40,000 nt of DNA from Nostoc sp. 'Peltigera membranacea cyanobiont' N6. Lineage in GTDB: Bacteria; Cyanobacteriota; Cyanobacteriia; Cyanobacteriales; Nostocaceae. A model generated the notes under the pieces. It saw only the letters and a list, made by a program, of their open reading frames with translations. It was not told the origin of the DNA and ran no database searches. The stretch is taken from NCBI RefSeq assembly GCF_002949735.1, contig NZ_CP026681.1:5660771-5700770 (forward strand), read 5' to 3'. The position numbers were made by a program, and so were the translations under genes. This document shows positions 8,366 to 30,170 of the stretch, one piece after another (the first letter of the stretch is position 1; each line of letters opens with the position of its first letter).

Positions 8366-9517
8366 TTAGTCCAACTTTTTCCGAATCTCTTTTGCCTTAG
8401 CTTCTAATACAGCCAATAAATCTCTCAGTTGCTCTTGCTGGATATCTTCGACCTTAGTTGCTGAGACATCTCGAATTAGAGAACTGATTTGGTGACTTGG
8501 TTTAGGTTTTGTTTCAGGAGCATGTTCAGCAATAGTTTGGGCAACTAGAAAACGAGTTTGAGCGACTGTTAGCTTTTCTTGCAAAACCTGTGATGTAGCA
8601 TCTTGTCGGATTTTAAGAGCTTTAGTTTCCTCAATTTTTAAATTTTTAGAATTTAGTTTTTGGAGTGACCGGGCATGGTTTGCACCAAGTCCTGATTCTC
8701 TAATCGCAATTTTTAAGTCTTCTGAAAGCCGTAAGCAAGGAAAGACATTTGCATCTACTGATGCTGGATTTTGTTGAAAACGTAGTAACAACAGAAGAAT
8801 ACTTTGTTCTATTTCGTCTAAATTAAATTCTTTAATGCCTTCTGACTGCTCTTTTCTAGTTAAAATAACCAATTCAGTTAATTGGGGCAACAGTTTTTTT
8901 GCGTTTAATCTAGCTATTGCTCTCCTAAGCGCTCTAACTACTTCTTCCTGTTCAAATTCCAAAGCTAACTTAGCCTGTTGAATCAAACCTTCGGCTAAAT
9001 CTAGCTCATTCAAGCCTTCTCGGTGAAGACTAGTTAATAAAGTGCGTGTATGTAATTCCTCTTCAGAAAGAACTTTCTGAAGCATCACTGCATCCAGTGT
9101 TTCAATTTCTGGCTGTAACTCTTCTGCAACGGATCTCCATCTCCGTTCTCCATCAAAAATGAGATTTCCCGGTAGTAAAATAATCGGCTGTTGTTGCCCT
9201 GACTCTCTAATGGAAACAGCCATACTCCGAATACTATCCGAAGTAAATGTTTGCCTTGCTTGTTTCGGATTGGGTCTTACTTCACTATAGTGAATTTTAA
9301 AAATTCCAGATGCTTTCAAATGTTCTCGTAGGTCTTCAATAGTTTGATTGAGGAGTGTACGTTCTTCTTCAGCAAGCTTTCCCTGTGCTTGTTCATCTTT
9401 TAATCTTGTAATCTCTGCCTGTAAATCTTCTACTCGTTCTTCAAGCTCAAATATCTGTTGTGAATCAGCAGCAGAAGCAAACATTCCAAGTACACTCGGT
9501 TTGTTTAATTTTGTCAT
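8366..9517 (-). CDS. parB: ParB-family partition protein with N-terminal coiled coil
   Basis: ParB N-domain signature VRPNPKQARQTF...SIRESGQQQPIILLPGNLIFDGERRWRS. The gene starts 3 nt after the parA stop. Confidence 0.8.
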   Translation of the reverse strand: MTKLNKPSVLGMFASAADSQQIFELEERVEDLQAEITRLKDEQAQGKLAEEERTLLNQTIEDLREHLKASGIFKIHYSEVRPNPKQARQTFTSDSIRSMAVSIRESGQQQPIILLPGNLIFDGERRWRSVAEELQPEIETLDAVMLQKVLSEEELHTRTLLTSLHREGLNELDLAEGLIQQAKLALEFEQEEVVRALRRAIARLNAKKLLPQLTELVILTRKEQSEGIKEFNLDEIEQSILLLLLRFQQNPASVDANVFPCLRLSEDLKIAIRESGLGANHARSLQKLNSKNLKIEETKALKIRQDATSQVLQEKLTVAQTRFLVAQTIAEHAPETKPKPSHQISSLIRDVSATKVEDIQQEQLRDLLAVLEAKAKEIRKKLD

Positions 9518-9520: not shown

Positions 9521-10369
9521 TTAACCTCTTATTAGCTTAAGTTCTTGAACTAGTGCATCAACAATTGGCAGAAAATCTCCTCTTGCCTCTTTACCTGGTC
9601 TGTAAATTCCCAGAGGTAGCCCTCTACCAGAAGCATTAAGAATATCAGCTGATTCTCGAATTGGGCTAAAATACTGAATTCCCAAATTTTTACAGACTAG
9701 GGGAAGTTCCTCAACAATACTTCTATGCGCTCCCCAATCACTTTTCCAACGAGTAGGAACTATACCTAATATTTTTGGAGTCGGTTTCAATCTTAGCCGC
9801 TTGCAGTTGAAATAGTACCACTCAATCATCGCCGCAGCACTTTGAGAAGCCTTGTATTCAGGTTGAATGGGAATTAATACGTGACTAGAAGCTGCAAGAG
9901 CAGTCAGTGGTAAAGGCTCCAATGTTGCAGGACAATCGATAATTACAAAATCGTGAGATAAGGGGTAATCACTCAACCGATCTGCAAGAGTATAAGCTCC
10001 ACGCAGATCCTTTGAAACTTCCCGAATTGTTTCGTGTAATTCTTTTCCGCCTTTACAAACTTGAATTTTGTCAATCTTACCTTGCCAAGCTGTAACTAAA
10101 GGCCAGTTCCCATTGAAGTCTGGATGGTAAACATTAGCCATTGTTCCCTGAGTTTTAAATTCTCCCAATCCGCAAAATAATGTCAATGATTCGTTAGGAT
10201 CGATGTCTAATAGTGCCACTGAATAGCCACGAACGCCCAATTCATACGCAAGATTGTATGAAATAGTACTTTTCGCCACTCCTCCAGCGTTTGTCTCAAT
10301 CGAAAGGGTCAAATTGGCAGGCATAATCTTTTCTCTTTCTTGATTACTATATTTCCGACTCCCAGTCAT
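9521..10369 (-). CDS. parA: ParA/Soj-type partition ATPase
   Basis: Deviant Walker A NAGGVAKST and Walker B VIIDCPATLE. The true start is possibly the internal ATG at 10324 (MPANLTLSIE), because the first 17-bp operator-like repeat begins at 10370, directly abutting the annotated start. Confidence 0.85.
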   Translation of the reverse strand: MTGSRKYSNQEREKIMPANLTLSIETNAGGVAKSTISYNLAYELGVRGYSVALLDIDPNESLTLFCGLGEFKTQGTMANVYHPDFNGNWPLVTAWQGKIDKIQVCKGGKELHETIREVSKDLRGAYTLADRLSDYPLSHDFVIIDCPATLEPLPLTALAASSHVLIPIQPEYKASQSAAAMIEWYYFNCKRLRLKPTPKILGIVPTRWKSDWGAHRSIVEELPLVCKNLGIQYFSPIRESADILNASGRGLPLGIYRPGKEARGDFLPIVDALVQELKLIRG

Positions 10370-10554: not shown

Positions 10555-11174
10555 ATGATCCTGACACAACTAGAAAAATTCCGCCAAGCTGTCTATGATT
10601 GTTTAGGGAAGGCCAAAGATCCAGTATTTGAATTGATGAATGCAGTATTGACAAGTCCTTCTATTCCATCATTTGTAAGCTTGTCACAAAGCCCAGTATT
10701 TCGACGGCAATGGTCAAGCATTTATGCAGCACTGCATGATAGTCGTCCACCGATAATGTTGCTGATGAAGCTGCTGGTACAGGAGGTAGGGACGGATGAA
10801 CAGCCATTTCTGGCAGGAGATCATAGCTTTTGGGCACGGACAGAAGCAAAGACACTAAAAGAAAGAACTTTTCATGGGGATAGAGGGGGGAGCATAGGCA
10901 TCGGACTTTCGTTACAGTACATTAGCGAATGGGAGTTGGGCATTGCCGTTAAAACATGAACGGATAACCAGCTTTGAAACGCCCACTAATTTTAGCCGCA
11001 TTCCAACTAAAACTTGTAACCCGTGAGTTAGGAAAAAGACCACTTGCCGCTTATGACCGAGGCTACGGCAATGCCAAATTTGTCCAAGCCACGGAGGAGA
11101 TTAACGCAGACCTGTTAGTCTACGTCCTAATCTTCATGGCTATAGCTATATTGCCAAGCGATCGGCTACGGTGA
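10555..11174 (+). pseudogene. degraded, frameshifted and 3'-truncated IS4/IS701-like DDE transposase
   Basis: Two consecutive ORFs in different frames (10555..10959 and 10974..11174). The content is transposase-like (FRRQWSSIYAALHD, LAGDHSFWARTEAKTLKERTF, LAAYDRGYGNAKFVQATEE). It is far shorter than an intact DDE transposase. The family call is from memory. Confidence 0.55.
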
Positions 11175-13132: not shown

Positions 13133-14506
13133 ATGGCTGAACAACTAAGTTTTCATTCTTCAGGTAGCGATCGCCTGCCACCCCAAAATATTGAGGCGGA
13201 AGAGGCGATTTTAGGCGGTATCATGCTTGACCCAGAAGCAATAGGTAGAGTGAGCGATTCTTTGATTCCAGAAGCTTTTTACATCAGCGCTCACAAAGAT
13301 ATCTATCAAGCAGCGCTGCGCCTTCACAGCCAGGGTAAACCTACAGACTTGCTCTCTGTCACCAGTTGGCTGACTGACTATGAAATACTAGTCCGTATTG
13401 GCGGGAGAAATAAATTAGCAACTCTGGTAGACCGCACGGTGTCAGCTGTGAACATCGACGCTTTGGCAGGGTTAGTAATGGAAAAATACCTGCGGCGGCA
13501 GTTAATCAAGGCTGGCAATGAAATTGTGCATCTGGGTTACGAAACTGAAACTGAGTTACCCAAAATCCTTGACCAATCGCAACAGAAAGTATTCCAGCTT
13601 TCTAACCAAAGCTTTGGTTCAAACACCGAACACAACAGCACAATTACTATTGCAGCTTACAAGGAATTAGATTCAGGAAGCCCTATCTACTCTACAGGAC
13701 TTGATGAACTCGATAATTTAATGGTTGGATTTGAAGGCGGTACGCTCACCATAGTTGCGGGTAGACCGTCAATGGGAAAGTCCCAGATTTCGTTGCAACT
13801 AGCTCTCAAGATGATATTGCTCCACGATTTACCTGTGGCTATCTTCTCGCTGGAGATGACAAAGAAACAATTAGAGTACAGGCTGTGGAGTTTAATTAGC
13901 GTCACCAATGCCTACAAACATTTAGGATTAACGCCACTAAGGAGCGATCGCATCCGCAGACATCGAGCCAAATTTCAACCTTTAGCAGATTGGGAATTCA
14001 CGCTTATTGCCAAAATCGTTGATATTGCCTCAGAACTGCCGCTTTATATGAATGATTCAAGGGGCATCACCGTTTCACAAATTGCATCAGAATGCCGTCA
14101 AATTAAGGCCAAAGAGGGAAAACTGGGGTTAGTTGTAGTTGATTACCTGCAAATGATGGCAGAGGACTCTGGAGTCAACCGCAGCTATGAACTAGGAGAT
14201 GTGGCCAGGGGACTTTACAAAATGGCAGGGGAACTGGATGTACCCGTGTTAGCACTGTCGCAAATCTCTAGGGGAGTTGAGGGCAGACAGAATAAGCGCC
14301 CAATGATGAGCGACCTTAGCCAATCGGGAATTTTAGAAATGGTTGCAGACAATATTATTCTCGCTTACCGGGATGAGTACTACAACCCAGACACTACAGA
14401 GCAAGGAATATTAGAACTCATCATGGCTAAGGCACGACACGGCGAAACAGGCACAGCAACGGTATTTTTTGACAAGTCCTATGGAATTATCCAGAATTTG
14501 CGGTGA
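13133..14506 (+). CDS. dnaB: replicative DNA helicase DnaB
   Basis: N-terminal PPQNIEAEEAILGGIMLDPEA, Walker A GRPSMGKSQ, Walker B VVVDYLQMM and SQISRGVE. The length (457 aa) is typical. Confidence 0.95.
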   Translation: MAEQLSFHSSGSDRLPPQNIEAEEAILGGIMLDPEAIGRVSDSLIPEAFYISAHKDIYQAALRLHSQGKPTDLLSVTSWLTDYEILVRIGGRNKLATLVDRTVSAVNIDALAGLVMEKYLRRQLIKAGNEIVHLGYETETELPKILDQSQQKVFQLSNQSFGSNTEHNSTITIAAYKELDSGSPIYSTGLDELDNLMVGFEGGTLTIVAGRPSMGKSQISLQLALKMILLHDLPVAIFSLEMTKKQLEYRLWSLISVTNAYKHLGLTPLRSDRIRRHRAKFQPLADWEFTLIAKIVDIASELPLYMNDSRGITVSQIASECRQIKAKEGKLGLVVVDYLQMMAEDSGVNRSYELGDVARGLYKMAGELDVPVLALSQISRGVEGRQNKRPMMSDLSQSGILEMVADNIILAYRDEYYNPDTTEQGILELIMAKARHGETGTATVFFDKSYGIIQNLR

Positions 14507-15284
14507 TGGAATATCGGAGTCCTCAAACTCCTGTCAAAACCATCCGCCTCCTGTATCGGAACTTTTACTGGGGGGTATTGATAATAGCCCTAGTAAAAAT
14601 TTTGAAGAAGTAGGGATACCCCCCAGTAAAAATAGCCCTAGTAAAAACTCTCAACAAATAGAGATAACTCCAAGTATTGACAACCCTAGTAAAAAGCGCA
14701 GAAATTGGGGTGAGGGTAACGGCACTATTCATTGGCGCACTATTACTAGGGGTGGAAAGGACTATCCCCAGGCTTATTATCATTGGCAGGAAAAAGGGAG
14801 CAAGAAGACCAAGTACATTCCCAAGCATTTACTGGGGGATATTCAAGAAGCAGAGTTCAGGAAGCGCCCAATTATAGAAATTTTGATATTACTGGGTGTT
14901 GTGCCTAGCCCTAGTAAAAACACATTACTGGGGGATATCGAAAACAGCCCTAGTAAAAATAGACGACACAAAGAAATACCCCCCAGTAAAAATAACCCTA
15001 GTAACGATGTCGAACAGTCAGAAATATCCCCCAGTAAAAATAACCCTAGTAAAACTAGACGACACAAAGGATTAGGTAGTGGCTCCATTCAGTGGAAAAC
15101 CATCACCCTTCACGGCAAAGATTATCCCCAAGCTTGGTATCACTATGAGTTTTGGAAAGATGGCGATCGCTTGGTTAAAAAGTGCAAGTATATTCCAAAA
15201 CGATTATTAGGGAGAATAGAGAAGCTAGAAGCAAATAAAGCGCCAGTCAAAGAGATTTTGTCAATATTGCGAGTAAAATTATAG
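14469..15284 (+). CDS. PSKN-repeat protein with an internally duplicated C-terminal-type domain
   Basis: About 10 PSKN/PSK motifs. A duplicated module is present (GxGxIxWxTITxxGKDYPQAxYHxxxxxxGxxxxKxKYIPKxLLGxI). The start is uncertain, with ATGs at 14469 and 14481, and the ORF overlaps the dnaB 3' end. Confidence 0.6.
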   Translation: MTSPMELSRICGDGISESSNSCQNHPPPVSELLLGGIDNSPSKNFEEVGIPPSKNSPSKNSQQIEITPSIDNPSKKRRNWGEGNGTIHWRTITRGGKDYPQAYYHWQEKGSKKTKYIPKHLLGDIQEAEFRKRPIIEILILLGVVPSPSKNTLLGDIENSPSKNRRHKEIPPSKNNPSNDVEQSEISPSKNNPSKTRRHKGLGSGSIQWKTITLHGKDYPQAWYHYEFWKDGDRLVKKCKYIPKRLLGRIEKLEANKAPVKEILSILRVKL

Positions 15285-15646: not shown

Positions 15647-16036
15647 ATGCCTAAATGGAAACTAGTAACAGAATTTACATTTGATAGCGCCCATTACATT
15701 AAAGATTATGATGGGCCATGTGGTAGGATGCACGGGCACAGTTACAAAGTGCGAATTGAGGCAACATCATCGAAGCTACACTCTTCACAATATTGTCCCC
15801 ATCCAGTTATGGTTGCTGATTTCAAAACCTTACGCTGGGCTAAACAAGACGTTACAAAAGGCGGGCTAGATCATTGTGTTCTCAATGAGGTATTGCCTCC
15901 TGAGTATGAAACGACAGCGGAGATGATTGCCAAATACATCTATGACGTAACTAAGAAGCAAGTGCCTTCTGATGTGCAGCTAAAAGTTGCAGTATCAGAA
16001 ACCTCCAATTCTTGGGTAGAGTATGAAGATGACTAA
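15647..16036 (+). CDS. queD: 6-carboxy-5,6,7,8-tetrahydropterin synthase (QueD/PTPS family)
   Basis: EFTFDSAHYIKDYDGPCGRMHGHSYKVRIE, then LDHCVLNEV, TAEMIAKYIY and VAVSETSN. These are collinear with E. coli QueD motifs. Confidence 0.9.
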   Translation: MPKWKLVTEFTFDSAHYIKDYDGPCGRMHGHSYKVRIEATSSKLHSSQYCPHPVMVADFKTLRWAKQDVTKGGLDHCVLNEVLPPEYETTAEMIAKYIYDVTKKQVPSDVQLKVAVSETSNSWVEYEDD

Positions 16037-18203
16037 ATCACCCTTAACAAAACCCTTGGTTTCAACTAGCACAATTTCATGCCCTCGTATACTAATTATT
16101 ACTTCTTGTACTGGAAAAAAGCTTCATAACCCAACAAATCAGCTGACAATAGAAGATTTTAAAGACACAGAGAGATTAAAAGAACGCACACAATCACTTT
16201 CAGAATTCTCTTGTCCGTCTGGCCAGATGTACACAGGGCTGCAACATCTACGGCTAATGGAGGGGGTGGATATCCTGCGATCTGCCCTTGGCGGCAGCGC
16301 TTCGCTATCGCATTTTGGAAAAGAAGCAGTGGATGTAAAAATCATTTCAGCAGGTTATGGGCTAATCCCGGAAGACAAAGCGATCGTTCCCTACTCTGTC
16401 ACCTTTAATTCGATGAAGAATGATGAAGTCTATTCGTGGGGGAATTATCTCAGAATCCATGAAGATTTTCAACAGGAAATTGTCGGATATGATTTAATAT
16501 TTGTCTTACTTGGGGATAAATACCTGCGTACTTTAAAGCTACCAGTTAAGACTCATTCCCACCAAACTTTCATTTTTTTTGCTTCAAATAAAAGTATAAA
16601 TTATATAGATTCAGGTAATGCCAAGCTATTAACTTTAACTCTTTCCAATAAGTCTGCATCGCGTTTTAGCTGTGCCTTAGTGGGTTTAAAGGGGCATCTG
16701 CTAAAGCTGATTGCTACTGAAGCCAGCAGAGTTTCACATTTATTGGAAAGTATATATAATAATCCAGAAACATTAGAAGAACTTCTAAATAAACAACCAA
16801 ATCCGTTAGAACTACCTCTTGGAATTTCATTTTCAACGGAGAGGAAATTAAATTTTCAGAATAAAAGCCATAGAAAAAGTAAATATACAGAAGAAGAGTT
16901 ATGTTCTATTCTAAAATTACCAGTTGCAGTTAATCAGCATTTAAAAATGCAATATTTTATTCCTGAATGGGATGATAAAGTAGATGCTGGATATGACTTT
17001 TTACAGGATAAATTTAGTCCTAATCGTAAGGCTTGCAAAGATGACATTTATGCTCATGAAGAAAAAATATATGAAAAGCCCAACTATGACGGTATTTTAG
17101 TATCTAAGATAGTTGTTGATAAGAGAAAATCCAAAAGAAATGATATAGAAGCAGCAGGAGGCATCCAAAAATATTTAAAATTCTCAGGAGAAATTATGGG
17201 GGATTGTGGAGCTTTTGGATATATCAAGCAGCCAGAACCTCCATATAATACTATAGAAATTTTAGATTATTATCAGCGGCTAGGCTTCCATTATGGGGTA
17301 AGTATTGACCACTTAATTGTTGGTCCATTTGCACAGCCTGGAATTAGAGAAGAACGTTACGATCTTACTTTGCGAAACGCAGAGGAATTTATATCAAAAC
17401 ACCAAAAATTTGGATATACATTTACCCCTATTGGTGTCGCTCAAGGTTGGAGTCCTGAAACTTATGCTGAGGCAGTAAAAAAACTGGTTGAAATGGAATA
17501 TGACTATATTGCTATAGGAGGAGTTGCCAGGACACCAACCATAGAAATTCTAGAAATATTGAAAGAAGTTTATCAACATTTAACATCCAAAACTAGATTA
17601 CATTTATTTGGAGTAGGACGTATTGATGCTCTTCCTTATTTCCGCCATTTGGGGGTAACTAGTTTTGACTCAGCAAGCCCATTACGTAAAGCTTGGTTTG
17701 ATGCAGTAGAGAATTATCATACTTTAAGTGGTAAAGCTTACGCTGCTGTGCGTATTCCTTTTGTAGATAAGCAGTCACAACGAATTAAACATTTGTTATC
17801 GTCAGGTTATGAACGTGAAACTCTCAAGCAGCTTGAGCAAGAAGCATTAAAAGCTATTCGGGAATATGATAAAGGCAATATATCACTAGATGAATCTCTT
17901 AAGAAATTACTTGCTTACGATGAGTTATTAGAATTACCTCGCGACGGTATAGTAAACCCGACAGCTAAAGCTAGGCGTTTAAGACAACACACTCAATTGT
18001 ATAGGGAATTATTAGAAGTAAAACCTTGGCAGGAATGTGAGTGTAAAATCTGTCAAAACCCAGACTGTAGAGTAGAAACAATTATTTTTCGTGGTAATGA
18101 CCGTAATCGTAGACGTGGTTTTCACAACACTTATGTATTTTATAAGCGGTTTCGAGAATTTCTGAATGCTGAAAATTGTAATATTGATAGTACGAAAGAG
18201 TAA
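16023..18203 (+). CDS. dpdA: fusion protein: N-terminal YaaA/DUF328-like (or DUF6884-like) domain plus C-terminal TGT-fold DNA transglycosylase-like (DpdA-like) domain
   Basis: N-terminal half: ILIITSCTGKK, MYTGL, IISAGYGLIPEDKAIVPYSVTF and FVLLGDKYLRTL parallel YaaA's [35 protein letters not shown] and NLASDEYFKSV. C-terminal half: YFIPEWDD, GDCGAFGY (TGT DSGGFQ), IAIGGVAR (GGLSVGE), VTSFDSASP (catalytic Asp segment), and the zinc site CECKIC...GFHN (CxCxxC...H). The ORF overlaps the queD stop by 8-14 nt. Confidence 0.7.
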   Translation: MKMTKSPLTKPLVSTSTISCPRILIITSCTGKKLHNPTNQLTIEDFKDTERLKERTQSLSEFSCPSGQMYTGLQHLRLMEGVDILRSALGGSASLSHFGKEAVDVKIISAGYGLIPEDKAIVPYSVTFNSMKNDEVYSWGNYLRIHEDFQQEIVGYDLIFVLLGDKYLRTLKLPVKTHSHQTFIFFASNKSINYIDSGNAKLLTLTLSNKSASRFSCALVGLKGHLLKLIATEASRVSHLLESIYNNPETLEELLNKQPNPLELPLGISFSTERKLNFQNKSHRKSKYTEEELCSILKLPVAVNQHLKMQYFIPEWDDKVDAGYDFLQDKFSPNRKACKDDIYAHEEKIYEKPNYDGILVSKIVVDKRKSKRNDIEAAGGIQKYLKFSGEIMGDCGAFGYIKQPEPPYNTIEILDYYQRLGFHYGVSIDHLIVGPFAQPGIREERYDLTLRNAEEFISKHQKFGYTFTPIGVAQGWSPETYAEAVKKLVEMEYDYIAIGGVARTPTIEILEILKEVYQHLTSKTRLHLFGVGRIDALPYFRHLGVTSFDSASPLRKAWFDAVENYHTLSGKAYAAVRIPFVDKQSQRIKHLLSSGYERETLKQLEQEALKAIREYDKGNISLDESLKKLLAYDELLELPRDGIVNPTAKARRLRQHTQLYRELLEVKPWQECECKICQNPDCRVETIIFRGNDRNRRRGFHNTYVFYKRFREFLNAENCNIDSTKE

Positions 18204-18252: not shown

Positions 18253-19080
18253 ATGAATATTGAACATAAGTTCCTTCCAGTATTTTCAGTAGACTGGTTA
18301 GGTTTATTCAATAGATTAAGGAATTTACAAGGTAATTACGGTATCTTGGCACCTATCTCATCTAACAAAAGTCTTTTAAGAGATATCCGTAATTTTAATA
18401 AACCTTTTTTTATAGATAGTGGCGTTTTTGGTAATCAAGATTTTCCTTGGTATTATGAAACATATTCTGAATACTTTTATAATCGTTGGGTACGTAAACG
18501 AAAATTTGCTTCTGAACAACATTTGCGGCATAAAATCAGAGAATATCTAGAACGCTGCGATCAATTTTCGCCTGATTTTATTTTTACACAAGATATTTTT
18601 GGAGAGCCATTACTATCACTTCATTTAGCTAGATTAACTTGGGAAGAGTATTGGCAAAAGCCAAGGAAATATACTTTGATTGGTGTTGTTCAAGTAGGAT
18701 ATTCAATTTATAATTGGCAACAAAAGTTGGTTCCTCAATTAAATTCTTTTCCTCCTCATTATGATTCACCCAAAAGTTTTTTAACTTCTTTGATTAGTGT
18801 TTATCGGGATATTGGTTATGATTACATCGCCTTGGGCGGATTGTTGAAAGTTGATAAAACTAGAACTACAGGCTTAAAATTTGGTTTGTCTGTAGAGCAA
18901 CTTGATGAACTATTAGCTTGGAGCCGACCAGAATTTGTCTTGGGAGGACTGTCGTTAACCCGAACAGAAGTGTTGAGAAAACACAATGTCTGGGCAGATT
19001 CTACTGGTTGGTTGTGGTGGAACGAGCAATATGACAGCAAGTTTCGTAACAGGAATGGTTTCCAAGAAGTTTTAATGTAG
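18253..19080 (+). CDS. second, short TGT-fold (DpdA-like) paralogue lacking the C-terminal zinc site
   Basis: FFIDSGVFGN (DSGGFQ-like), YIALGGLLKV (GGLSVGE-like) and VWADSTGW (FDSxxP-like Asp). The protein ends without a CxCxxC...H motif. Confidence 0.5.
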   Translation: MNIEHKFLPVFSVDWLGLFNRLRNLQGNYGILAPISSNKSLLRDIRNFNKPFFIDSGVFGNQDFPWYYETYSEYFYNRWVRKRKFASEQHLRHKIREYLERCDQFSPDFIFTQDIFGEPLLSLHLARLTWEEYWQKPRKYTLIGVVQVGYSIYNWQQKLVPQLNSFPPHYDSPKSFLTSLISVYRDIGYDYIALGGLLKVDKTRTTGLKFGLSVEQLDELLAWSRPEFVLGGLSLTRTEVLRKHNVWADSTGWLWWNEQYDSKFRNRNGFQEVLM

Positions 19081-19485
19081 CTACTATTTGTTATTTATCC
19101 AGTACTTTTACTGATTTCTGTGTTTAGAACAATAAATTATTGGTTTTTCTTTTTAAGGAAAGCATAATAAATATATACTTATCTACCTCTGGGTGCCTAC
19201 TGGTAAATTTATTGTGATGCAAATTGCTTTCTTACAAACCAAGCTGCAAAAATTAGCAAATTGGAAAATATATGGTGACAAGTTAGTTTGTGACTCACCT
19301 TTTACCACAGTAGTAGGACACCTAGAGTTATGCTGTTGCCTAAGTTTAGATTATGCTAGGCTCCGCGTTAACGGTGTCTCTCTGTTAGAGAAGCTATCTT
19401 GGAAGAAGCGAATAGCACGCGGATACGAGACGCTATGTGCGTGCTACAGGAAGGTTAATGCTAACGTACTTAGTGGACTTGGAGT

Positions 19486-22400
19486 ATGATAACACTTGGT
19501 TCGTTGGTACGTTCCCGAAACAACAGCTTGGGCATAGGGAAGGTAATCGATATATCTGATACCCAGGCAAATGTTGAGTATTTTTGCTCAGTTGGGCAAC
19601 GGATAGAAAAAAGCTTACCCTTAAGTTCGCTATCTCAGTTGAAACTAGAGCGCCAAACTCGATGCTATATTTACCCGGAAAGCCAAGAAGCATGGCTGAT
19701 TGGCAGAATTTACGAGTGGGATGAGGAACTTTATCAGTATCGCATTGACTTACCTGATAAAAAGACGATCGCAGTTAGCGAAGAACAAGTATACGTGCGT
19801 TGCAATTTACCTCAAGCAGACCCCATCGAGACTCTAGCAATGAAGGGGCAAGAAACGCCCTATTTTCACGATAGACGCTTTGCTTTTGTTAAATGCTTAA
19901 TTTTACAACGCGCTGTCAGTCGGGGAATGACGGGATTAATTTCCGCCAATATTAAGCTTTATCCACATCAAGTTGAAGTTGTCCGTCGTGTACTCGAAGA
20001 TCCGATTCAACGATATTTATTAGCGGATGAAGTTGGACTGGGAAAAACCATCGAAGCTGGTGCTATTCTTCGTCAATATTTATTAGATGAACCTTCTGGA
20101 CGTGCGGTAGTGCTAGTTCCGCAATATTTACTGGAACAATGGCAGCAGGAATTAGAAAATAAGTTTTACATCTCCCACTTTCTCAAACGGGTAGCAGTGC
20201 TGGCGGTTGAGGATATCCACAAAATCAACCCAAAAGCGAATATTGGCTTGCTAATTTTAGATGAAGCACACCACATTGCAGCAATGGCGACTTCTAAGGA
20301 TACAACTGTGCTACAGCGTTTTGAGACTTGCAAAAATATTGCCCATAAAAGCGATCGCCTGCTTCTACTCTCGGCTACCCCGGTTCTCAACCACGAGCAG
20401 GATTTTCTCGCCATGCTGCATCTGCTCGATCCGACAACCTATAAACTTGATGACTTAGCAGGTTTTCGTGAAAGGGTAGTAAAACGCCAAGATATTGGTC
20501 GAATTCTCCTGTCATTTAAAGAAGGTGCAAACCCTTTCGTCTTGAAAACTAATCTCAAAAATCTCCGTAACCTGTTTGCTCAAGATAACTATTTACTGGA
20601 ATTGGCTGACAATCTAGAAAATAGTTTACAAGCAAAGGCTGGCGATACAGTTGAAATTGTCAGGGCAATTCGTATCCATATTAGCGATACCTACAGACTT
20701 CACAGAAGGATGCTTCGCAATCGTCGTGCTTCTGTAGAAGATGTAATTTTTGACCGTAATATTACACTGAGAACTGAGTATGATTTAGATGAGCGATCGC
20801 CTGACATCCACGAACTAATTGAAGAGTGGCGTGATGTAGCTCCTGATGACAAACAATATCACCACATTTTTTTATTGTTTTTCCGTGCTTCTGGTACTTG
20901 GCTGGGTATTTTAAAACAGGTAATTCAAGCACGTTTAAGTAGTGAGACAGCGCTGCGGGAGGGTTTCCCTCCGCAGGCGACTGCGTTCCCCGAAGGGGTT
21001 CTCGAAGAGTACACGAAGGGTATATCCACTGCGGAATTAATTCAGGAGTTTGGCGCTGATAGTGTTCGCATCCTGACTGAAACTCCTAAATTTGCTGGGG
21101 AAGCAGAGATTTTGCAAAGCCTACTGCAAATTATAGAACAACCTTCAGAGGATGGCGATCGCCTTGAATTACTCAAGACAGTTATCCTCTATCAACTCTG
21201 CGAACCTTTAAAATTACAATCCTTGAAATCCAACCTCCCTAAATTGCTTGCAGAGGTTCAAAAACGGCTAAAAAGACCGATGCCGGGAGATAGTCTGCCC
21301 AAAATTGTTATATTTACCAGTTTTGTGCAAACTTGCGCTGAAATTGTCCGTTATTTGAGCGATCGTTTTGGTGAGGGGACTATCGTCAGTCATCAAGTTG
21401 GACAAACTCCCTCTCAAGTAGAGGAGAACTTAAATCGGTTTAAAAAAGACCCCAAATGCTTTATTTTAGTTTGCGACTCCTCCGGCGAAGAAGGTCGTAA
21501 CTTACAATTTACCAACTACATGATATGTTTTGACTTGCCTTGGTCGCCAAATCGCCTAGAACAAAGAATTGGTAGGATAGATCGGATTGGTCGTCTATTG
21601 AAAGTTGAGTTTACAGTATTTGCTGGCGTAGACTTACCCGATAGTCTCCATGATGCATGGTATCGCTTATTAAAAGAAGGGTTTAATATCTTTAGACAAT
21701 CTATTGCTAGTCTCCAATTTTATGTAGATGAAAAATTACCTGTATTAGCAGAAATATTGTTTAAATCGGGTGCAAATGGACTATTAGAAAGTATAGAAGT
21801 AATTCAAAAAGAAATTGAGCAGGAACAAGTCAAAATTAGCGAACAGAACGCCCTAGATGAAATTGATGCTCTGGATGAGAATGCTACCCAATATTTTCAA
21901 GCTTTAGACGATTATGATGCCCGTCATCAGGAAATCCAGCAAGTAACTGAAGATTGGATTTGTGGTGCGTTGGGATTTGAGTCAATTACTAATCCTAATT
22001 TATCGGCACTAAAGCGTTATAAACCTACCGGAAATACATTAATTCCAGCAAATGATTTAAGCAGCAATTTTGCACGGGTTTTAGAAGAATTTGGGACTTT
22101 TAACCGTAGGGTAGCAAATCAACAGCTTGGTGCAAAACTCTACCGCATTGGTGAAAAATTTGTAGACGCACTATCATCTTATATTCATTGGGACGACCGG
22201 GGTCAAGCCTTTGCTATGTGGCGAGTTGCAGAAACTTGGGATTCTGGGGAAGGTGAAGAGTGGTATGGTTTCCGATTGAATTACGTTATTGAAACAAATT
22301 TAACGAATTACAAAAACACCACAAAAGATAAAACTTTGCAAAGACGCGTAGATGGGTTATTCCCTCCAATTGTAGAAAGTGTATTTATTGATGCACGATA

Positions 22401-22869
22401 TGAACCAATGTGTGCGGTTGAAGATGAAACACTATTAAATATCTTGCAACGTCCTTATAATGGCAAGGGCGGTAAATATCGAGATTACAACTTAGCCAAA
22501 AGTCGTTTATCTATTCTTGATAATTTTATTGAGCCTAGCAGTTGGCAAGAATTTTGCCATCAGACGCGTGACACATCTTTAGAATTACTCAGTCAGCGTC
22601 CTGAATTTATTTCATTATGTGAAAATAGCGCCATCCGTGCTGGACAAAAATTAGGTAAGAGACTAGACCAATTGCGCTTGCGTCTCAACCGACTTACTAA
22701 CCAAGAGCGTATTTCTAATAACGTACTGGAGCAAGAACTCAATAACGAAATGGCATTAAACCAAGTAATTATCGAAGGAATTCGTCATCCTACCATTCGT
22801 CTTGATTCTGTTGGTTTTATTATCGTTTCTGGGCGACCTCCAGCTAAATCTGAGGAGGATGATTTATGA
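19486..22869 (+). CDS. dpdE: SNF2/RapA-family helicase, DpdE-like by position
   Basis: Motif I LLADEVGLGKTIEAG, motif II LILDEAHHI, motif III LLLSATP, motif V GEEGRNLQF, motif VI RLEQRIGRIDRIG. Confidence 0.8.
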   Translation: MITLGSLVRSRNNSLGIGKVIDISDTQANVEYFCSVGQRIEKSLPLSSLSQLKLERQTRCYIYPESQEAWLIGRIYEWDEELYQYRIDLPDKKTIAVSEEQVYVRCNLPQADPIETLAMKGQETPYFHDRRFAFVKCLILQRAVSRGMTGLISANIKLYPHQVEVVRRVLEDPIQRYLLADEVGLGKTIEAGAILRQYLLDEPSGRAVVLVPQYLLEQWQQELENKFYISHFLKRVAVLAVEDIHKINPKANIGLLILDEAHHIAAMATSKDTTVLQRFETCKNIAHKSDRLLLLSATPVLNHEQDFLAMLHLLDPTTYKLDDLAGFRERVVKRQDIGRILLSFKEGANPFVLKTNLKNLRNLFAQDNYLLELADNLENSLQAKAGDTVEIVRAIRIHISDTYRLHRRMLRNRRASVEDVIFDRNITLRTEYDLDERSPDIHELIEEWRDVAPDDKQYHHIFLLFFRASGTWLGILKQVIQARLSSETALREGFPPQATAFPEGVLEEYTKGISTAELIQEFGADSVRILTETPKFAGEAEILQSLLQIIEQPSEDGDRLELLKTVILYQLCEPLKLQSLKSNLPKLLAEVQKRLKRPMPGDSLPKIVIFTSFVQTCAEIVRYLSDRFGEGTIVSHQVGQTPSQVEENLNRFKKDPKCFILVCDSSGEEGRNLQFTNYMICFDLPWSPNRLEQRIGRIDRIGRLLKVEFTVFAGVDLPDSLHDAWYRLLKEGFNIFRQSIASLQFYVDEKLPVLAEILFKSGANGLLESIEVIQKEIEQEQVKISEQNALDEIDALDENATQYFQALDDYDARHQEIQQVTEDWICGALGFESITNPNLSALKRYKPTGNTLIPANDLSSNFARVLEEFGTFNRRVANQQLGAKLYRIGEKFVDALSSYIHWDDRGQAFAMWRVAETWDSGEGEEWYGFRLNYVIETNLTNYKNTTKDKTLQRRVDGLFPPIVESVFIDARYEPMCAVEDETLLNILQRPYNGKGGKYRDYNLAKSRLSILDNFIEPSSWQEFCHQTRDTSLELLSQRPEFISLCENSAIRAGQKLGKRLDQLRLRLNRLTNQERISNNVLEQELNNEMALNQVIIEGIRHPTIRLDSVGFIIVSGRPPAKSEEDDL
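20941..21018. repeat. GC-rich short dispersed-repeat-like element embedded in-frame in the SNF2 helicase ORF
   Basis: gagacagcgctgcgggagggtttccctccgcaggcgactgcgttccccgaaggggttctcgaagagtacacgaag has an imperfect hairpin, ctgcgggaggg-ttt-ccctccgcag (20953-20976). It encodes SETALREGFPPQATAFPEGVLEEYTK. Its composition is unlike the rest of the gene. Confidence 0.45.
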
Positions 22870-25415
22870 TTGACTCATTCTCAGAACTTCGGGAAATTCT
22901 CAAAACAGGTAAAATTCCTGAAGATATTAGCCATGTTTCAGAAGCCTGTCATCGGCGCTTGTTGGATGCACTGCGAAACTCGCCTGGGTCTGCGGATATT
23001 GTTAGTCTAGTGCGTCATGTGTTGCGACGGGAAGATGAAAAACAAGGTGGAAGTTCTGCAACGACTCTTTTAGTACCCCGCAAATCGCCTTTTCCTAATC
23101 GCAGTATTTGGGAGTCGGCTAGCATAACCGTGCTGCGCGAAGATAAAGAACACTATCTCATTAGCGCCCGTCCTTGGCAACCAGAATGGCTTGACCTGGC
23201 TGACCAATATCCGCCAGATGCACCTTTATTTAAAGAAGAAAACCGGCGGAATTATGAACCAGTTGCGGGCGACCCGTTTTTGCAACTCGTAGAGCTAGAC
23301 GCTTATCGTAGTATTGGACAGCGTGAAGCAATTCGCGCTGTTTTGACTGCTCCTGATAATTCAACTTTAGTAATTAACTTACCTACGGGTGCTGGAAAAA
23401 GCCTTTGCGCTCAATTACCTGCATTGCTGAACTCCAGAAATAATAATGGTGTCAGCGTGGTAGTTGTTCCGACTACAGCATTGGCTATTGACCAACAACG
23501 GGCATTAAAACCTTTTGTACACCATGCCACAGCTTATTATAGCGATGATTCTGTCGAGGGTAAAGAAAGAAGAGAAGGGATACGCGATCGCATTCGCGCC
23601 GGAACCCAAAGGATAATTTTTACCTCTCCTGAAAGTTTAATGGATTCTCTGGCATCTGCTCTGTATGAAGCAGCCAAACTAGGGATATTACGGTATTTTA
23701 TTATCGATGAAGCGCACATGGTAGAGCAATGGGGTGATGATTTTCGTCCCGCCTTTCAAGAAATTCCTGGTTTGCGAAGAGATTTATTGCGTCTTAATTC
23801 TTTCACAACTTTATTGCTAACAGCAACTTTAACAGAATCTTGTTTAGATACCCTGGAAACATTATTTGGTCAAGATTTACAAGTTATATCTGCTGTACAG
23901 TTGCGACCAGAGCCTGCTTATTGGTTTAAGAAATGTGAGACTGAAGAACTTAGAAAAGAAAGGCTACTTGAGGCAGTCTATCATCTTCCCCGTCCGTTAA
24001 TTATTTACGGAACTAAAGTTAAAGATGTAGAGGATTGGAAACGAGAATTAACCCGCGCTGGATTTAAAAGATGTGACCTGATGACAGGTAAATCTACTCC
24101 TCAGCAACGGGAGCAACTAATTGAAACATGGCGAGAAGGAAAGATTGATATAGTTGTTGCTACTTCTGCCTTTGGATTAGGTATTGACCAATCAGGTGTC
24201 AGAGCAGTAATTCATGTTTGTATTCCCGAAACCATTGACCGTTTCTATCAAGAAGTTGGACGGGGAGGAAGGGATGGAAAAGCATGTATGTCGCTAACAT
24301 TATATACAACTGAGGACTTCGGAATTGCTCGTGGTTTAAACGAAAAATCGACAATTACTATCGAGAGAGGATTGCAGCGTTGGCAAAGTATGTTTGCGAA
24401 AAAAGAACCCCTAAAAGACGGTAAATATCGCGTGCCTATTAATAATCCTCCCTCTTTACTAGAAACAGATATTGATATGCGAAGTGACCAAAACAGGGCT
24501 TGGAATATCCGCACTTTAACGTTGATGAACCGAGCAAATCTAATTGAAATCGACTCAGAAGAACCTCCCCAGAAAAAAAACTCTGAATCAGAATCTGAAG
24601 AAGCTTATCAAGCAGCTTGGGATTTATACCGAAATTCTCGTAGTATTCGTATCCGCAATCAGCTTCACTTAGAAAAATTCACTTGGGAATCTGAAGTTGA
24701 ACCAGTGCGCCAGGAACGCCAAAACTGGAGTTATAAAAATCTGCAACTAATGAAAGAGGCTTTAAAAGCTAAACGTTGTATTTCAGAAATATTTGAGGAA
24801 GCTTATAGTATTCCCTCACGTCACACTCCAGAAACCAGAAGTCCAGTGAGAGCCTATCGCGCTTGTGGGGGTTGTCCTGTTTGTAGAGAAAATGGGGTGA
24901 AACCGTTTCCAGGAATTATGCCTGGAATTATGCCTGAACCAAGCTCCGTTTGGCAAAAACCAAAATTTTTTGTCGGTGAAGAACTGCAACGCTTGTTGTT
25001 GGGCGATAATTTAATGCTTATTTTTTATGAATATTTAGAAGATAAAAGTAGGAAGCGCCGCATAAATAAAGTGTTGAAATGGTTTGTAGAACAAGGGATG
25101 ATAAATATTATTATCCCTTGTGAGTTACAGGAAACATTGATTAAGGAAGTAAACAGAATTCCAAACGCTTTCATATTTTTATGGGAAACCTATCAGCCAA
25201 GAAAAATGCCACATATTCCTACTCTTATTTTCCATCCTGAAGCAGAACAATTACCTTACAATTATTTATCAAAAAATAGTATGTTTAAGGCTCCGCGCGT
25301 TATTTTACTACCTAAAGATACACCAGATCCCAGTCGAACTGACCGACGACTGATTGATATTTTTTCAGGACGGCAGTTTAAATTTGACTCCTTTTCTACG
25401 GAGATTGGTGTATGA
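22866..25415 (+). CDS. dpdF: RecQ-like DEAD/DEAH-box helicase with ~330-aa C-terminal extension, DpdF-like by position
   Basis: Motif I NLPTGAGKSLCAQLPAL, motif II FIIDEAHMVEQWGDDFRPAF (RecQ DEAHCxSQWGHDFRPxY), LLTATL, VATSAFGLGIDQSGVRAVIH and YQEVGRGGRDG. A Cys cluster CGGCPVC is present. Confidence 0.8.
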   Translation: MIDSFSELREILKTGKIPEDISHVSEACHRRLLDALRNSPGSADIVSLVRHVLRREDEKQGGSSATTLLVPRKSPFPNRSIWESASITVLREDKEHYLISARPWQPEWLDLADQYPPDAPLFKEENRRNYEPVAGDPFLQLVELDAYRSIGQREAIRAVLTAPDNSTLVINLPTGAGKSLCAQLPALLNSRNNNGVSVVVVPTTALAIDQQRALKPFVHHATAYYSDDSVEGKERREGIRDRIRAGTQRIIFTSPESLMDSLASALYEAAKLGILRYFIIDEAHMVEQWGDDFRPAFQEIPGLRRDLLRLNSFTTLLLTATLTESCLDTLETLFGQDLQVISAVQLRPEPAYWFKKCETEELRKERLLEAVYHLPRPLIIYGTKVKDVEDWKRELTRAGFKRCDLMTGKSTPQQREQLIETWREGKIDIVVATSAFGLGIDQSGVRAVIHVCIPETIDRFYQEVGRGGRDGKACMSLTLYTTEDFGIARGLNEKSTITIERGLQRWQSMFAKKEPLKDGKYRVPINNPPSLLETDIDMRSDQNRAWNIRTLTLMNRANLIEIDSEEPPQKKNSESESEEAYQAAWDLYRNSRSIRIRNQLHLEKFTWESEVEPVRQERQNWSYKNLQLMKEALKAKRCISEIFEEAYSIPSRHTPETRSPVRAYRACGGCPVCRENGVKPFPGIMPGIMPEPSSVWQKPKFFVGEELQRLLLGDNLMLIFYEYLEDKSRKRRINKVLKWFVEQGMINIIIPCELQETLIKEVNRIPNAFIFLWETYQPRKMPHIPTLIFHPEAEQLPYNYLSKNSMFKAPRVILLPKDTPDPSRTDRRLIDIFSGRQFKFDSFSTEIGV

Positions 25416-26320
25416 GTGTACTCAAAGAACCTCTCGCTACACCCAGTAGAGTTAGAGGCATTTTTAGATACTTATTACAAAAAAAAGGACAAAAGGAGAA
25501 AAGAGAAGTTTTAGAAAAAATTCTTTCTCCTGATGAACTTGTGAAAGACGCGCCTTCTGGTCGCCCTATGTTCCGTAAAACAATCAATCAAATAAAAAAT
25601 AGAATCGTCAATGGAGTTCACAATATAGGTCTTTTGATTGAAGAGGAAGATGAAATAGCGATAAATCCAAGTCTTACCGAGGATTCTATAAATCCTCAAA
25701 TTGGTGACCAATTATTACCTAATACACTAGCTACCCTATTTTTTGCCTCTGGTAATACAGATGAGGAAGACTTTGGTCTTGTTTGTGCTTGGTACTTGGC
25801 ACAAAATATTTATGATGCTCCTGGAAATTGGGAAGCGATTCAAAATCAGGTCAGTGAACAACAAGTTGGTGAGTTACTAAGAATGACGAATAGCACTCTT
25901 TACGGTCAAATGGATGACTGGATGTGCTACATGGGTTTAGCTTGGGGCCATGCTTTGGGAGGAAAAAGAGTAACTGTTCCTGACCCTACGCTTTATATAA
26001 AACGAAATTTGAAGAATTTATTCAATGATCAGGTTGGTGCAAAACTTCTCATTCGAGAATTTATTGATAGATTAGCAAAAAAATGCCCTCTATTTGAAAC
26101 AGGTAAGTTTCGAGAAATAATTGAAATAAATATTGGTGGCCGTCAACTTAATTATTTATCTACTAGCACTGCGTTTGCTTTGTTTCGCTTACGAGATGAA
26201 GGTTATATCCAGCTTAAAAGAGAATCTGATGCTGACCTAATGATTCTACCAAAAGCGAATAACCAAGTCGATGATGATGGGCGAATTTCTCATATTACTT
26301 GGCAAGGAGAGAACTCATGA
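25412..26320 (+). CDS. hypothetical protein in the DpdG position
   Basis: ATGA start/stop overlaps at both ends tie it to the neighbouring genes. No motif recognised. Confidence 0.5.
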   Translation: MSVLKEPLATPSRVRGIFRYLLQKKGQKEKREVLEKILSPDELVKDAPSGRPMFRKTINQIKNRIVNGVHNIGLLIEEEDEIAINPSLTEDSINPQIGDQLLPNTLATLFFASGNTDEEDFGLVCAWYLAQNIYDAPGNWEAIQNQVSEQQVGELLRMTNSTLYGQMDDWMCYMGLAWGHALGGKRVTVPDPTLYIKRNLKNLFNDQVGAKLLIREFIDRLAKKCPLFETGKFREIIEINIGGRQLNYLSTSTAFALFRLRDEGYIQLKRESDADLMILPKANNQVDDDGRISHITWQGENS

Positions 26321-29300: not shown

Positions 29301-29472
29301 CATTGACAACACTAATGATTTTTTGCATACTTCGATTCTTGAAGTAAAAAGTCGTATTGTGGAGTTAGAACAATCTGGTGGTACAACGAGAGAATCTAGT
29401 CATAAAGAAATTCGTGATGGTTTAGCTAATTTACGGATTCTAATGAATGAAATTAAAGGAGATACAAAATGA
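26317..29472 (+). CDS. large P-loop NTPase in the DpdH position
   Basis: Walker A VLGGSGTGKSHL, Walker B-like VLLIEDFAK, and a Cys/His cluster CSDCEHREACH. I prefer the ATG at 26317 (RBS aaggagag; ATGA overlap with the upstream stop) to the TTG at 26299 given in the ORF track. That gives 1051 aa, against 1057 aa from the track's TTG. Confidence 0.6.
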   Translation: MTFEKFVCWNLERVRRVMDVEATQPPNHLFLATHHPIAMYRQELIKASSQIEYDEQKFLKDFLAEKDFAFVPVLGGSGTGKSHLIRWLAANIKSTEKRKVLLIPKIGTNLKDIVSLILEGMEGERFDEYRERVKRATNTLTETQARVQLLNQLAAAVGDDGKRDRTQLTDEHNYLIDELDSLLYDPFFREHYWLRDNGIIHRLVIHILGRRDTVEIVEERREFSIDDLPNNLLYLEKAGERSRSFYTELWSSDEIKKITVDWLNQHLNEAITQVLNLGREDLRRLMCEVREILAEQNVELVLLIEDFAKLQGIDLEVLEAVLARPQQLGSKPMCAIRTALACTTGYFESLIDTVKQRLTFSVNLDVGTVGDQSLITQDDIQDFVARYLNTVRLEDKVILDWATSNNHEDNFQNEPLVSACSDCEHREACHAGFENVNGIGLYPFTPKALEQMQHRVNTGNFNPRILIKDVLKYTLENGLDNIKKGLFPSVSLREHFGKMRLSAMLQADIKAKDPQNFDRREILIDLWTDSNELCDLPIQIHTALNLPPLGVKIKQTEIKRVIPQSQISHVLPRVTEAVKSYQTTREETEDVQKEILPNKLAEQIKLLDNWNNQEILHQDLGKPLREFIYPAIIERINWDSEILLQGSFARSSKSREDVDKGNKIFKQRNIVFYSPRVTRETIAGVKLSLPLNPDDVDEFRTTAIAFQGILLYSHYKNWKFENGDRYFRTYTRQLEKWSQYVLEQIRLYPREFGEAWNPVPAAVELLAITSTMAGHPTNSLEDVINALFLDVENNNDENRALSWKQLFKSLKKYRKDLLEIVQSRIACTKGSSTQFQIIDAIQIIEPLEKVRKTWQPQCEIPEDIRDNKLFQDIYKARQQVDELLEKAIEEEYERQLDIYQRLISELGENIKTKDVIDALKAAMEAAQDAAVFRGQKDFDGMTNVLNKFMPRAIKTYRDTMKRVQTEKENPESNIGKLLQYLSEDYQNVITTSSEFIDNTNDFLHTSILEVKSRIVELEQSGGTTRESSHKEIRDGLANLRILMNEIKGDTK

Positions 29473-30170
29473 TCATAGAAAAATCACGGAAACTAGTTGA
29501 GTTATCTCAACTCAAAAAAACTCTGCAAAAATCTTTAGATGATCTTCAAAATGTTCAAACTAGGCAAAAGCAAATAACTGAGGCTGTTGCAGCTATTCAA
29601 CCACTTGTAGAAGTATTAAAAGCTTTTCGTCAAAGAGGTATTACTATTGATTTGACTCATAAGGCAGATAAACTCTTAAATTTTATTATCAACATAGAGG
29701 ATGAATTTAGTAGCAATCCTGATTGGATTCTTGATCCGGAAAATTTTCAAGGCAATATTTTAAAATCCCAGGTAGTATACCTAAAAACTCAGCTAAAGGA
29801 GCAATTGAGTGAATCTTGGAAAAGCTACCGAGATCAAAAAATGCCTAGCACTAATAATGAAGTACTCAAGGTTCTGGCTAAATTAGAAGCTTTTAAAAAA
29901 ACCGTTTTGCAAATTCAGATTATAGATAGAGATATAAAAAACGTTACTTATCCTAAAAATAATGCTGAATTTGAAATGTATGAACTTAAAATAGAGCAAT
30001 TAAACTACTCTTGGAAGAGTCTCAAGTCTGATGAATTTCCAGAAGCCGTATCGCATTTCCTCCAAGCGGCATCTGATCAAGGCTCGCCTTTAACTCTTTT
30101 AACTCCAGAAGTTCAAGATTGGATTAATCAAAATGGCATTTCTGATTCTTTTAAAATTCGCTTGATTTAA
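29469..30170 (+). CDS. hypothetical coiled-coil protein in the DpdI position
   Basis: ATGA overlap with the upstream gene. The sequence is heptad-rich and K/E/Q-rich. No motif recognised. Confidence 0.5.
   Translation: MIIEKSRKLVELSQLKKTLQKSLDDLQNVQTRQKQITEAVAAIQPLVEVLKAFRQRGITIDLTHKADKLLNFIINIEDEFSSNPDWILDPENFQGNILKSQVVYLKTQLKEQLSESWKSYRDQKMPSTNNEVLKVLAKLEAFKKTVLQIQIIDRDIKNVTYPKNNAEFEMYELKIEQLNYSWKSLKSDEFPEAVSHFLQAASDQGSPLTLLTPEVQDWINQNGISDSFKIRLI

Follow-up and report, generated by a model that had tools for sequence, protein, structure and literature searches.

We identified a gene in which a DpdC-family domain and a complete DpdA are joined in a single polypeptide within a dpd cluster of the cyanobacterium Nostoc sp. 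'Peltigera membranacea cyanobiont' N6. The gene lies in a 40-kb stretch of DNA (NZ_CP026681.1, positions 5,660,771-5,700,770 of the forward strand), the whole of which was analysed and is referred to as the window. To our knowledge, no restriction-modification system larger than the 7-deazaguanine system Dpd has been described, and biochemical studies of Dpd are limited to the Salmonella enzymes. The open reading frame (ORF), the domain profiles and the relatives of the protein all agree on the fused architecture, which had been proposed in an earlier interpretation made from the DNA letters alone (the sequence-only reading). The fusion gene (16023..18203, forward strand) starts with an ATG and encodes 726 amino acids in a frame that continues across the domain junction. 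The protein is composed of a DUF6884/DpdC-like domain (residues 22-256, 16086..16790) delimited by PF21818, hhalign and an AlphaFold2 (AF2) model, an inter-domain linker (residues 257-308, 16791..16946) and a DpdA, or DNA-guanine transglycosylase, domain (residues 309-726, 16947..18200) delimited by NF041059 and by PDB entry 7UI4, all on the forward strand.

The four motifs that had been quoted for the N-terminal part, ILIITSCTGKK (residues 23-33), MYTGL (69-73), IISAGYGLIPEDKAIVPYSVTF (107-128) and FVLLGDKYLRTL (160-171), are all present in the translation and follow each other in the order proposed. The linker is shorter than the ~100 residues first suggested; the N-terminal fold of the AF2 model extends to residue ~256, which leaves ~50 residues, and the supposed richness in lysine and glutamate is only mild (7 Lys and 5 Glu in 52 residues). 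The linker is poorly conserved, with few conserved alignment columns, and largely disordered by prediction: its predicted local distance difference test (pLDDT) values are 49-74, and low confidence in the AF2 model is confined to residues 257-300. The first ~21 residues of the fusion are also unstructured in the AF2 model and are missing from most homologues, suggesting that the genuine start codon may lie slightly downstream of this ATG.

The two-domain architecture is widespread. All of the best 120 protein-cluster relatives contain both PF21818 and PF01702, and the fusion is annotated as one coding sequence (CDS) in complete RefSeq plasmids. The NCBI names of these 120 relatives are 'tRNA-guanine transglycosylase DpdA' or 'hypothetical', and the RefSeq name 'DpdA' conceals the second domain of the fusion proteins. 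For a survey of gene context, one genome per species was scanned, which gave 277 confirmed relatives, and the best 80 loci were examined. A single ORF with both domains was found in 76 of the 80, and no additional DUF6884/DpdC ORF occurs within 10 kb at the fused loci. The best 80 loci, with the order DUF6884-tRNA-guanine transglycosylase (TGT), cover Cyanobacteria, Bacillota (Paenibacillus, Laceyella and Desulfosporosinus), Deinococcota, Chloroflexota, Planctomycetota, Myxococcota, Desulfobacterota and Proteobacteria. The order is reversed on haloarchaeal plasmids, for example in Halobaculum marinum (L014, 7001..9907), where a 968-amino-acid protein starts with the TGT domain and ends with DUF6884, which points to an independent fusion event. 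The gene of this protein lies near queC, folE, queE and queD, and its surrounding restriction genes differ from those in the window; haloarchaeal loci of this kind have been described as Dpd-like loci of the 'BRIGADE' type (bioRxiv 10.1101/2025.09.15.676423). In addition, a protein of 1205 amino acids from a Logan assembly (P0057) is a triple fusion DUF6884-TGT-DndB, in which DpdC-like, DpdA and DpdB-like functions all appear to be combined in one polypeptide. The fused enzyme is paired with at least four types of downstream module (L003, L009, L101 and Bacillota L068-L086), namely dpdE-J; DndB with a DEAD helicase of ~1650 amino acids and a phospholipase D (PLD) nuclease; a helicase, a 307-amino-acid mini-TGT and a second helicase; and a protein named p265 with a mini-TGT, a P-loop protein and dpdJ. 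Combined with such varied modules, the fused enzyme behaves as a portable modification cassette.

In all respects that a sequence allows to be checked, the C-terminal domain is a bona fide DpdA. Residues 309-712 match the NCBIfam DpdA equivalog NF041059 with 460.5 bits (cut-off 200 bits) over model positions 1-405 of 406, the PADLOC DpdA model gives 402 bits and the Pfam TGT family an E-value of 2e-15. The best sequence match in the PDB is the DNA-guanine transglycosylase of Salmonella Montevideo (7UI4, E 8.8e-82), which covers the whole domain, and tblastn showed 38% identity over 407 residues to DpdA from an enterobacterium, a close relative of the protein whose crystal structure is known. 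The active site of Salmonella DpdA, as described in PMC10164549, comprises Asp95, Phe99, Asp130, His181/Gly182, Gly206/Gly207 and Asp256. The equivalent residues of the fusion are D394, F398, D429, Q474/G475, G499/G500 and D549, which show little or no variation from fusion to fusion; the catalytic pair Asp95/Asp256 is conserved as D394/D549. The only active-site difference from Salmonella is at the base-contacting His181, which is replaced by Gln474 (17442..17444), the state found in tRNA-guanine transglycosylases. Gln474 is nearly invariant among the fused DpdA domains, and the replacement may have a bearing on substrate specificity. The zinc-binding site (18036..18125, forward strand), made up of C672, C674, C677 and H701, aligns with the CxCxxC...H of Salmonella DpdA and is likewise nearly invariant among the fusions. 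The TGT-type domain is complete and has its zinc site, as had been predicted.

The N-terminal domain belongs to DUF6884. PF21818 matches residues 100-181 with 34.0 bits when the whole protein is searched and with 36.2 bits when residues 1-260 are used, above its gathering threshold of 30 bits. The sequence-only reading had named DUF6884 as the alternative and YaaA/DUF328 as its first choice; this first choice is rejected on sequence. PF03883 (YaaA/DUF328) has no match in the fusion protein at E ≤ 1, the NCBIfam YaaA model NF002543 gives 16-17 bits where 204 are required, and the structure of Escherichia coli YaaA (DUF328/UPF0246, 5CAJ) was not retrieved when PDB sequences were searched with a profile of the domain. 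The AF2 model of the domain, built from 71 sequences, has a mean pLDDT of 87, with values above 90 over most of residues 21-260 and lower values in the loop 91-100. Its only significant fold neighbour in the PDB is 5CAJ (Foldseek E 1.2e-4, probability 1.00), with a template modelling (TM) score of only 0.35-0.40, and YaaA is therefore regarded as a remote fold match only, as judged from the predicted structure. This is in line with the Pfam description of DUF6884 as a distant YaaA relative with CxxxK and LSAxxG motifs (PMC11701544). In the fusion these motifs read C29-T-G-K-K33 and I107-S-A-G-Y-G113, and C29, K33, S109, A110 and G113 are invariant in the 71 sequences, together with Y70, G72, Q74, H75, Y112, P123, Y124 and F128.

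The relation to DpdC is more distant than the family name would suggest. The assignment of DpdC to DUF328 in the sequence-only reading agrees with older papers (PMC5699537, PMC12839542), but canonical DpdC proteins match PF21818, and DpdC is listed under DUF6884 in the GATOR-GC paper. The PADLOC DpdC models match the N-domain weakly; in the best match (E 1.9e-9), residues 22-196 align with positions 3-170 of a model of 319. A canonical DpdC was recovered from an Enterobacter cloacae plasmid (L013), on which dpdC-dpdA-dpdB are accompanied by dpdD, dpdK and dpdJ on the opposite strand. For this protein 91 relatives were collected, and hhalign of a profile of 121 fusion N-domains against a profile of 80 canonical DpdC sequences gave a probability of 97.6% and an E-value of 3.5e-12 over 194 columns, spanning residues 21-235 of the query and 2-234 of the 318 residues of DpdC. 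In an alignment of nine sequences, the CxxxK and SAxxG motifs and Y70, G72, Y124 and F128 are common to fusions, canonical DpdC and stand-alone DUF6884 proteins; the insertions specific to DpdC are missing from the fused domain, which is nearer to the stand-alone type of ~230 amino acids than to enterobacterial DpdC. On these comparisons the N-domain is classified as a DUF6884 domain that is homologous, though not orthologous, to the DpdC that has been characterised.

Stand-alone relatives of the N-domain are numerous. A phmmer search of a library of representatives at 50% identity retrieved 716 clusters with E ≤ 0.001, a number that falls to 408 for E ≤ 1e-10, and most of the 150 best clusters are stand-alone proteins of ~220-260 amino acids with 32-52% identity. 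For three of these relatives (38-42% identity) a long contig was available, and each of them has a context related to preQ0 (7-cyano-7-deazaguanine). In the first (L097), queD and queC are followed by the DUF6884 gene, whose start overlaps the preceding stop codon, and a TGT-like ORF is also present; in the second (L098), the relative has a TGT-like gene and the transporter gene queT nearby; in the third (L099), it is flanked by queD, queC and GTP cyclohydrolase genes and, at its other side, by DpdA and DndB as separate genes. These contexts support a role equivalent to that of DpdC for the subfamily. The fusion itself adds a linkage of the same kind, with the DUF6884 domain joined to DpdA and adjoining queD. 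Among the counter-examples, a DUF6884 domain with 31% identity is embedded in a protein of ~9000 amino acids, annotated as 'AAA family ATPase', on plasmid p5 of Azospirillum argentinense (L012).

In the window, the fusion gene is the second gene of a putative modification operon. The first, queD (15647..16036, forward strand), encodes a 6-carboxytetrahydropterin synthase of 129 amino acids (Pfam PTPS, E 1.4e-28), and its 3' end and the beginning of the fusion gene share 14 nt, an overlap that is also present in L001, L006 and L007. A gene encoding a protein of 275 amino acids, p275, begins 49 nt after the fusion gene. It is followed by the restriction module dpdE-J (19486..34717, forward strand), identified with NCBIfam and PADLOC, which consists of dpdE (19486..22869), dpdF (22866..25415), dpdG (25412..26320), dpdH (26299..29472), a dpdI-like gene (29469..30170) and dpdJ (30194..34717). 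These six genes have overlapping or closely spaced starts, and the fusion gene is part of a run of genes with one orientation. All except the dpdI-like gene score above the cut-off of the respective NCBIfam equivalog, in agreement with PADLOC; the dpdI-like gene reaches 38.9 bits with the DpdI equivalog (cut-off 150) and has no PADLOC match, and its product is a predicted divergent DpdI. Downstream of dpdJ, and also on the forward strand, are genes for a MerR-like protein (34845..35318), a type IIG restriction-methyltransferase of 1008 amino acids (35356..38382), a protein of 218 amino acids with no assigned function (38386..39042) and an HNH endonuclease (39410..39856), which together with dpdE-J form a defence island. 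A dpdE-J module without a fused modification gene was found on plasmid p057_I of Nostoc sp. C057 (L095, 12001..24474). Its DpdE, F and J are 84-91% and its DpdG, H and I 62-67% identical to the proteins of the window; all that remains in front of it is the final 16 codons of p275, with fragments of a second dpdF, dpdG and dpdH upstream, and it is apparently an orphan restriction module.

Upstream of the operon lie genes typical of plasmids: a partition pair consisting of a parB-like gene with a ParB_N domain (8366..9517) and parA (9521..10369), both on the reverse strand, and a plasmid-type maintenance gene for a DnaB-type helicase (13133..14506, forward strand). The transposase fragment between them (10555..10959) is truncated and covers only the first 108 of 439 model positions. 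The G+C content within the window ranges from ~35 to 47%. The best-supported reading of the locus is that of a plasmid-borne Dpd system on a plasmid-like cyanobacterial replicon, with the fused enzyme as its modification module. The ORF at 14469..15284 (forward strand, 271 amino acids, TTG start) has no family match; 'PSKN' repeats are numerous in it, and a module of ~70 residues occurs twice, with the pattern G.G.I.W.TIT..GKDYPQA.YH...KYIPK.LLG.I. A riboswitch upstream of queD, such as one of the preQ1 type, was considered and rejected, as no Rfam family reaches its threshold in a scan of the window.

The product of the gene next to the fusion, p275 (18253..19080, forward strand), has no match in Pfam, NCBIfam or PADLOC, and its 128 cyanobacterial homologue clusters are all named 'hypothetical'. 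AF2 with Foldseek and hhalign predict a TGT fold without the zinc subdomain. The AF2 model has a pLDDT of 86, and its top ~40 Foldseek matches in the PDB are bacterial tRNA-guanine transglycosylases (E 2e-7, TM ~0.5). In hhalign, p275 aligns with the DpdA domain over the Q-G and GG motifs with a probability of 93.6%, and with the 307-amino-acid proteins termed TGT2, which accompany the fusion in Bacillota and some cyanobacteria, with 72-82%. The latter alignment places the invariant residues D55 (FIDSGVF), Q147, G195/G196 and D249 (WADST) at TGT catalytic positions. The gene for p275 is present in 30 of 53 cyanobacterial loci and that for TGT2 in 15 of 27 non-cyanobacterial ones, showing that a second protein with a TGT fold is a frequent companion of the fused enzyme. 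p275 is probably part of the modification module.

No DpdD or DpdK was found in the window with the NCBIfam and PADLOC profiles, and candidates for a DpdB, the absence of which is taken up below, were rejected. The ParB_N gene at 8366..9517 encodes the partition protein paired with ParA. Neither p275 nor p265 of Bacillota is a disguised DpdB, with an hhalign probability of only 0.5-5% against DndB. The 405-bp spacer between p275 and dpdE (19081..19485) contains no remnant of DndB and is conserved in close relatives; its nucleotide identity, including an ORF of 98 amino acids with a GTG start (19193..19489), is 84-96% in L007, L015-L017, L022, L023 and L031. The spacer occupies the site at which other relatives have a convergent DndB gene and a small ORF, and a small protein or a regulatory region are candidates for what it contains. 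A convergent DndB gene directly follows p275 in L001, L004, L005, L006 and an Allocoleopsis plasmid.

Among the 80 survey loci a DndB/DpdB gene is present in 19, all of them cyanobacterial. As 14 of the other 61 loci are too short downstream to judge, 19 of 66 assessable loci keep DndB and 47 are without it. Of the cyanobacterial loci that have dpdE/F like the window, 12 of 13 are without DndB within 10 kb. A locus that runs from queD through the fusion, p275 and the spacer to dpdE-H and has no dpdB is seen again in close and more distant relatives (L015-L017, L022, L023, L028, L030, L050 and L057), indicating that the absence is systematic and not an accident of assembly. The suggestion of the sequence-only reading that the fusion might explain the missing DpdB is correct in its premise for the window, but the explanation itself is not established: many fused loci keep DndB, as does the triple fusion, so the fusion alone does not make DpdB dispensable. 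In the literature, dpdB is reported in 92% of the genomes with dpdA (PMC5699537), and a published survey that required both dpdA and dpdB lists one cyanobacterial island only.

The interpretation that we favour, with a probability of roughly 60%, is that the fusion is a bifunctional DNA-modification enzyme that forms the modification half of a Dpd restriction-modification system. The operon order would be queD, fusion, p275, dpdE-J, with the queD copy supplementing the preQ0 pathway of the host. By analogy with Salmonella DpdA, and given the identity and the conserved residues of the domain, the DpdA domain would exchange guanine for preQ0 in double-stranded DNA through the double displacement known from TGTs, with D549 as the nucleophile and D394 as the general acid/base. 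The tethered DUF6884 domain would then act on the inserted base, most likely by hydrating the nitrile of dPreQ0 (2'-deoxy-7-cyano-7-deazaguanosine) to the amide of dADG (2'-deoxy-7-amido-7-deazaguanosine), and C29/K33 and the SAxxG motif may form the active site of this conversion step. Salmonella DpdC is reported to need neither DpdA nor DpdB for the conversion of DNA-borne dPreQ0 to dADG (PMC10164549). Insertion and conversion would in this way be placed in one polypeptide, and DpdE-J would restrict DNA that does not carry the mark, as proposed from the Salmonella system. Since DpdB is absent from the window, the enzyme may work without it, use a DpdB encoded elsewhere or be aided by p275.

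Several observations weigh against this interpretation. Enterobacter DpdC scores 470 bits on the PADLOC DpdC model and the fused N-domain 35 bits; the identity in the hhalign alignment is as low as 19%, and the C-terminal extension of DpdC of ~85 residues (235-318) has no counterpart in the N-domain. The conserved motifs of the N-domain are family-wide and not specific to DpdC. DUF6884 proteins encoded on plasmids of Pelobacter and Marinobacter (32% identity) are by score as DpdC-like as the N-domain and have no que or dpd gene nearby. For the DUF6884 member YfjM, Pfam proposes recognition of DNA lesions (PMC11701544). No measurement of dADG or dPreQ0 in the DNA of cyanobacteria turned up when the literature was searched. 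Finally, DpdB is reported to be required for preQ0 insertion in Salmonella (PMC10164549), and searches of the window by tblastn with three DndB/DpdB proteins and by hidden Markov model (HMM) detected none.

The conversion could also take place before insertion. The DUF6884 domain would then act on the free base, turning preQ0 into 7-amido-7-deazaguanine (ADG) or another 7-deazaguanine, or would make a derivative other than ADG, and DpdA would insert the product. Canonical DpdC is no more than a distant relative of the domain, phage DpdA families are reported to insert several different 7-deazaguanines (PMC10516641), and the translational coupling of one stand-alone relative to queC in a queD-queC operon (L097) and the position of another near queT (L098) are arrangements suited to a step at the level of the base. 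This course of events nevertheless seems unlikely, as the one characterised homologue is reported to work on DNA-borne preQ0 (PMC10164549), the predicted YaaA-like fold and the Pfam description indicate a DNA-binding cleft, and the attachment to an enzyme of DNA, whichever domain comes first, is consistent with DNA as the common substrate.

We consider it a little less probable still that the DUF6884 domain is an accessory module for DNA binding or base flipping, which loads or targets DpdA in place of DpdB and leaves dPreQ0 as the final mark. Its only fold relative, YaaA, is DNA-binding, base flipping or lesion recognition has been proposed by Pfam for YfjM, and some close stand-alone DUF6884 proteins lie outside preQ0 contexts. 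DpdB is missing from the window and from 47 of the 66 assessable fused loci, and some validated dpd islands are reported to make only dPreQ0 (GATOR-GC paper). However, the invariant Cys, Lys, Tyr and Ser residues in 71 sequences of 40-75% identity suggest catalysis over mere binding, and the homologue DpdC is described as a proven enzyme on DNA (PMC10164549). Moreover, 19 fused loci and the triple fusion keep DndB/DpdB, indicating that the DUF6884 domain is not a general replacement of DpdB. That the fusion is an artefact, with a frameshift or assembly error merging neighbouring dpdC and dpdA, can practically be dismissed: the halves are adjacent ORFs, split or rearranged, in four of the 80 loci (L040, L060, L063, L080) and a fifth (L031) is interrupted by a contig end, but the frame is unbroken at the junction, 76 of the 80 species-level genomes from many phyla have one ORF, complete RefSeq plasmids one CDS, and 120 of the 120 best protein clusters, from independent sources, have both domains.

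A more far-reaching extension of the bifunctional enzyme is that the fused DpdC-DpdA and p275 together constitute a machine for 7-deazaguanine modification of DNA that operates without DpdB and so needs no ATPase. p275 would in that case be a second active DNA transglycosylase or glycosylase, or an obligatory partner of DpdA; the pairing of QTRT2 with QTRT1 provides a model for such a partner subunit of the DpdA domain. We regard this extension as speculative. If true, it would mean that the ATP requirement in Salmonella is not intrinsic to base insertion into duplex DNA.

Compared with the Dpd system of Salmonella enterica serovar Montevideo, the fusion has a DpdA domain that is homologous over its full length and agrees in the catalytic aspartates, the zinc site and the large Ins8 insertion region, its N-domain is a homologue of DpdC, and the downstream genes are dpdE-J equivalogs, with the dpdI-like gene below the cut-off. 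A linked queD is a further likeness, and such linkage is reported for 78% of dpd islands (GATOR-GC paper). The window differs in having the DpdC-like part and DpdA in one polypeptide, in the distant subfamily to which this part belongs, in having no DpdB, DpdD or DpdK, and in the extra mini-TGT gene for p275. With other DUF6884 proteins, e.g., Bacillus subtilis YfjM, the N-domain shares a score above the gathering threshold and the CxxxK/SAxxG motifs, and may share an alpha/beta YaaA-like ('cantaloupe') fold, whereas it is joined to DpdA and belongs to a subfamily tied to preQ0 and TGT genes. We therefore regard the architecture as a variant of the known Dpd system that is abundant in databases and for which no describing paper was found. 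The dpd papers that were searched for 'fused/fusion' do not describe it, and Thiaville 2016 and Yuan 2018 lay outside that search, so that an earlier mention is possible; for further dpd-related papers, among them the YprA preprint and the BREX paper, the search covered protein and domain names only.

The occurrence of DpdC-like and DpdA domains on a single chain, in both orders and in many phyla, provides Rosetta-stone evidence that the two activities act on the same substrate. The working definition of DpdC shifts with it from a narrow enterobacterial family to a far larger DUF6884 subfamily. Surveys that demand both dpdA and dpdB miss the fused class, which is common in cyanobacteria, and the compact fused construct offers a test case for the need for DpdB and ATP in base exchange in duplex DNA.

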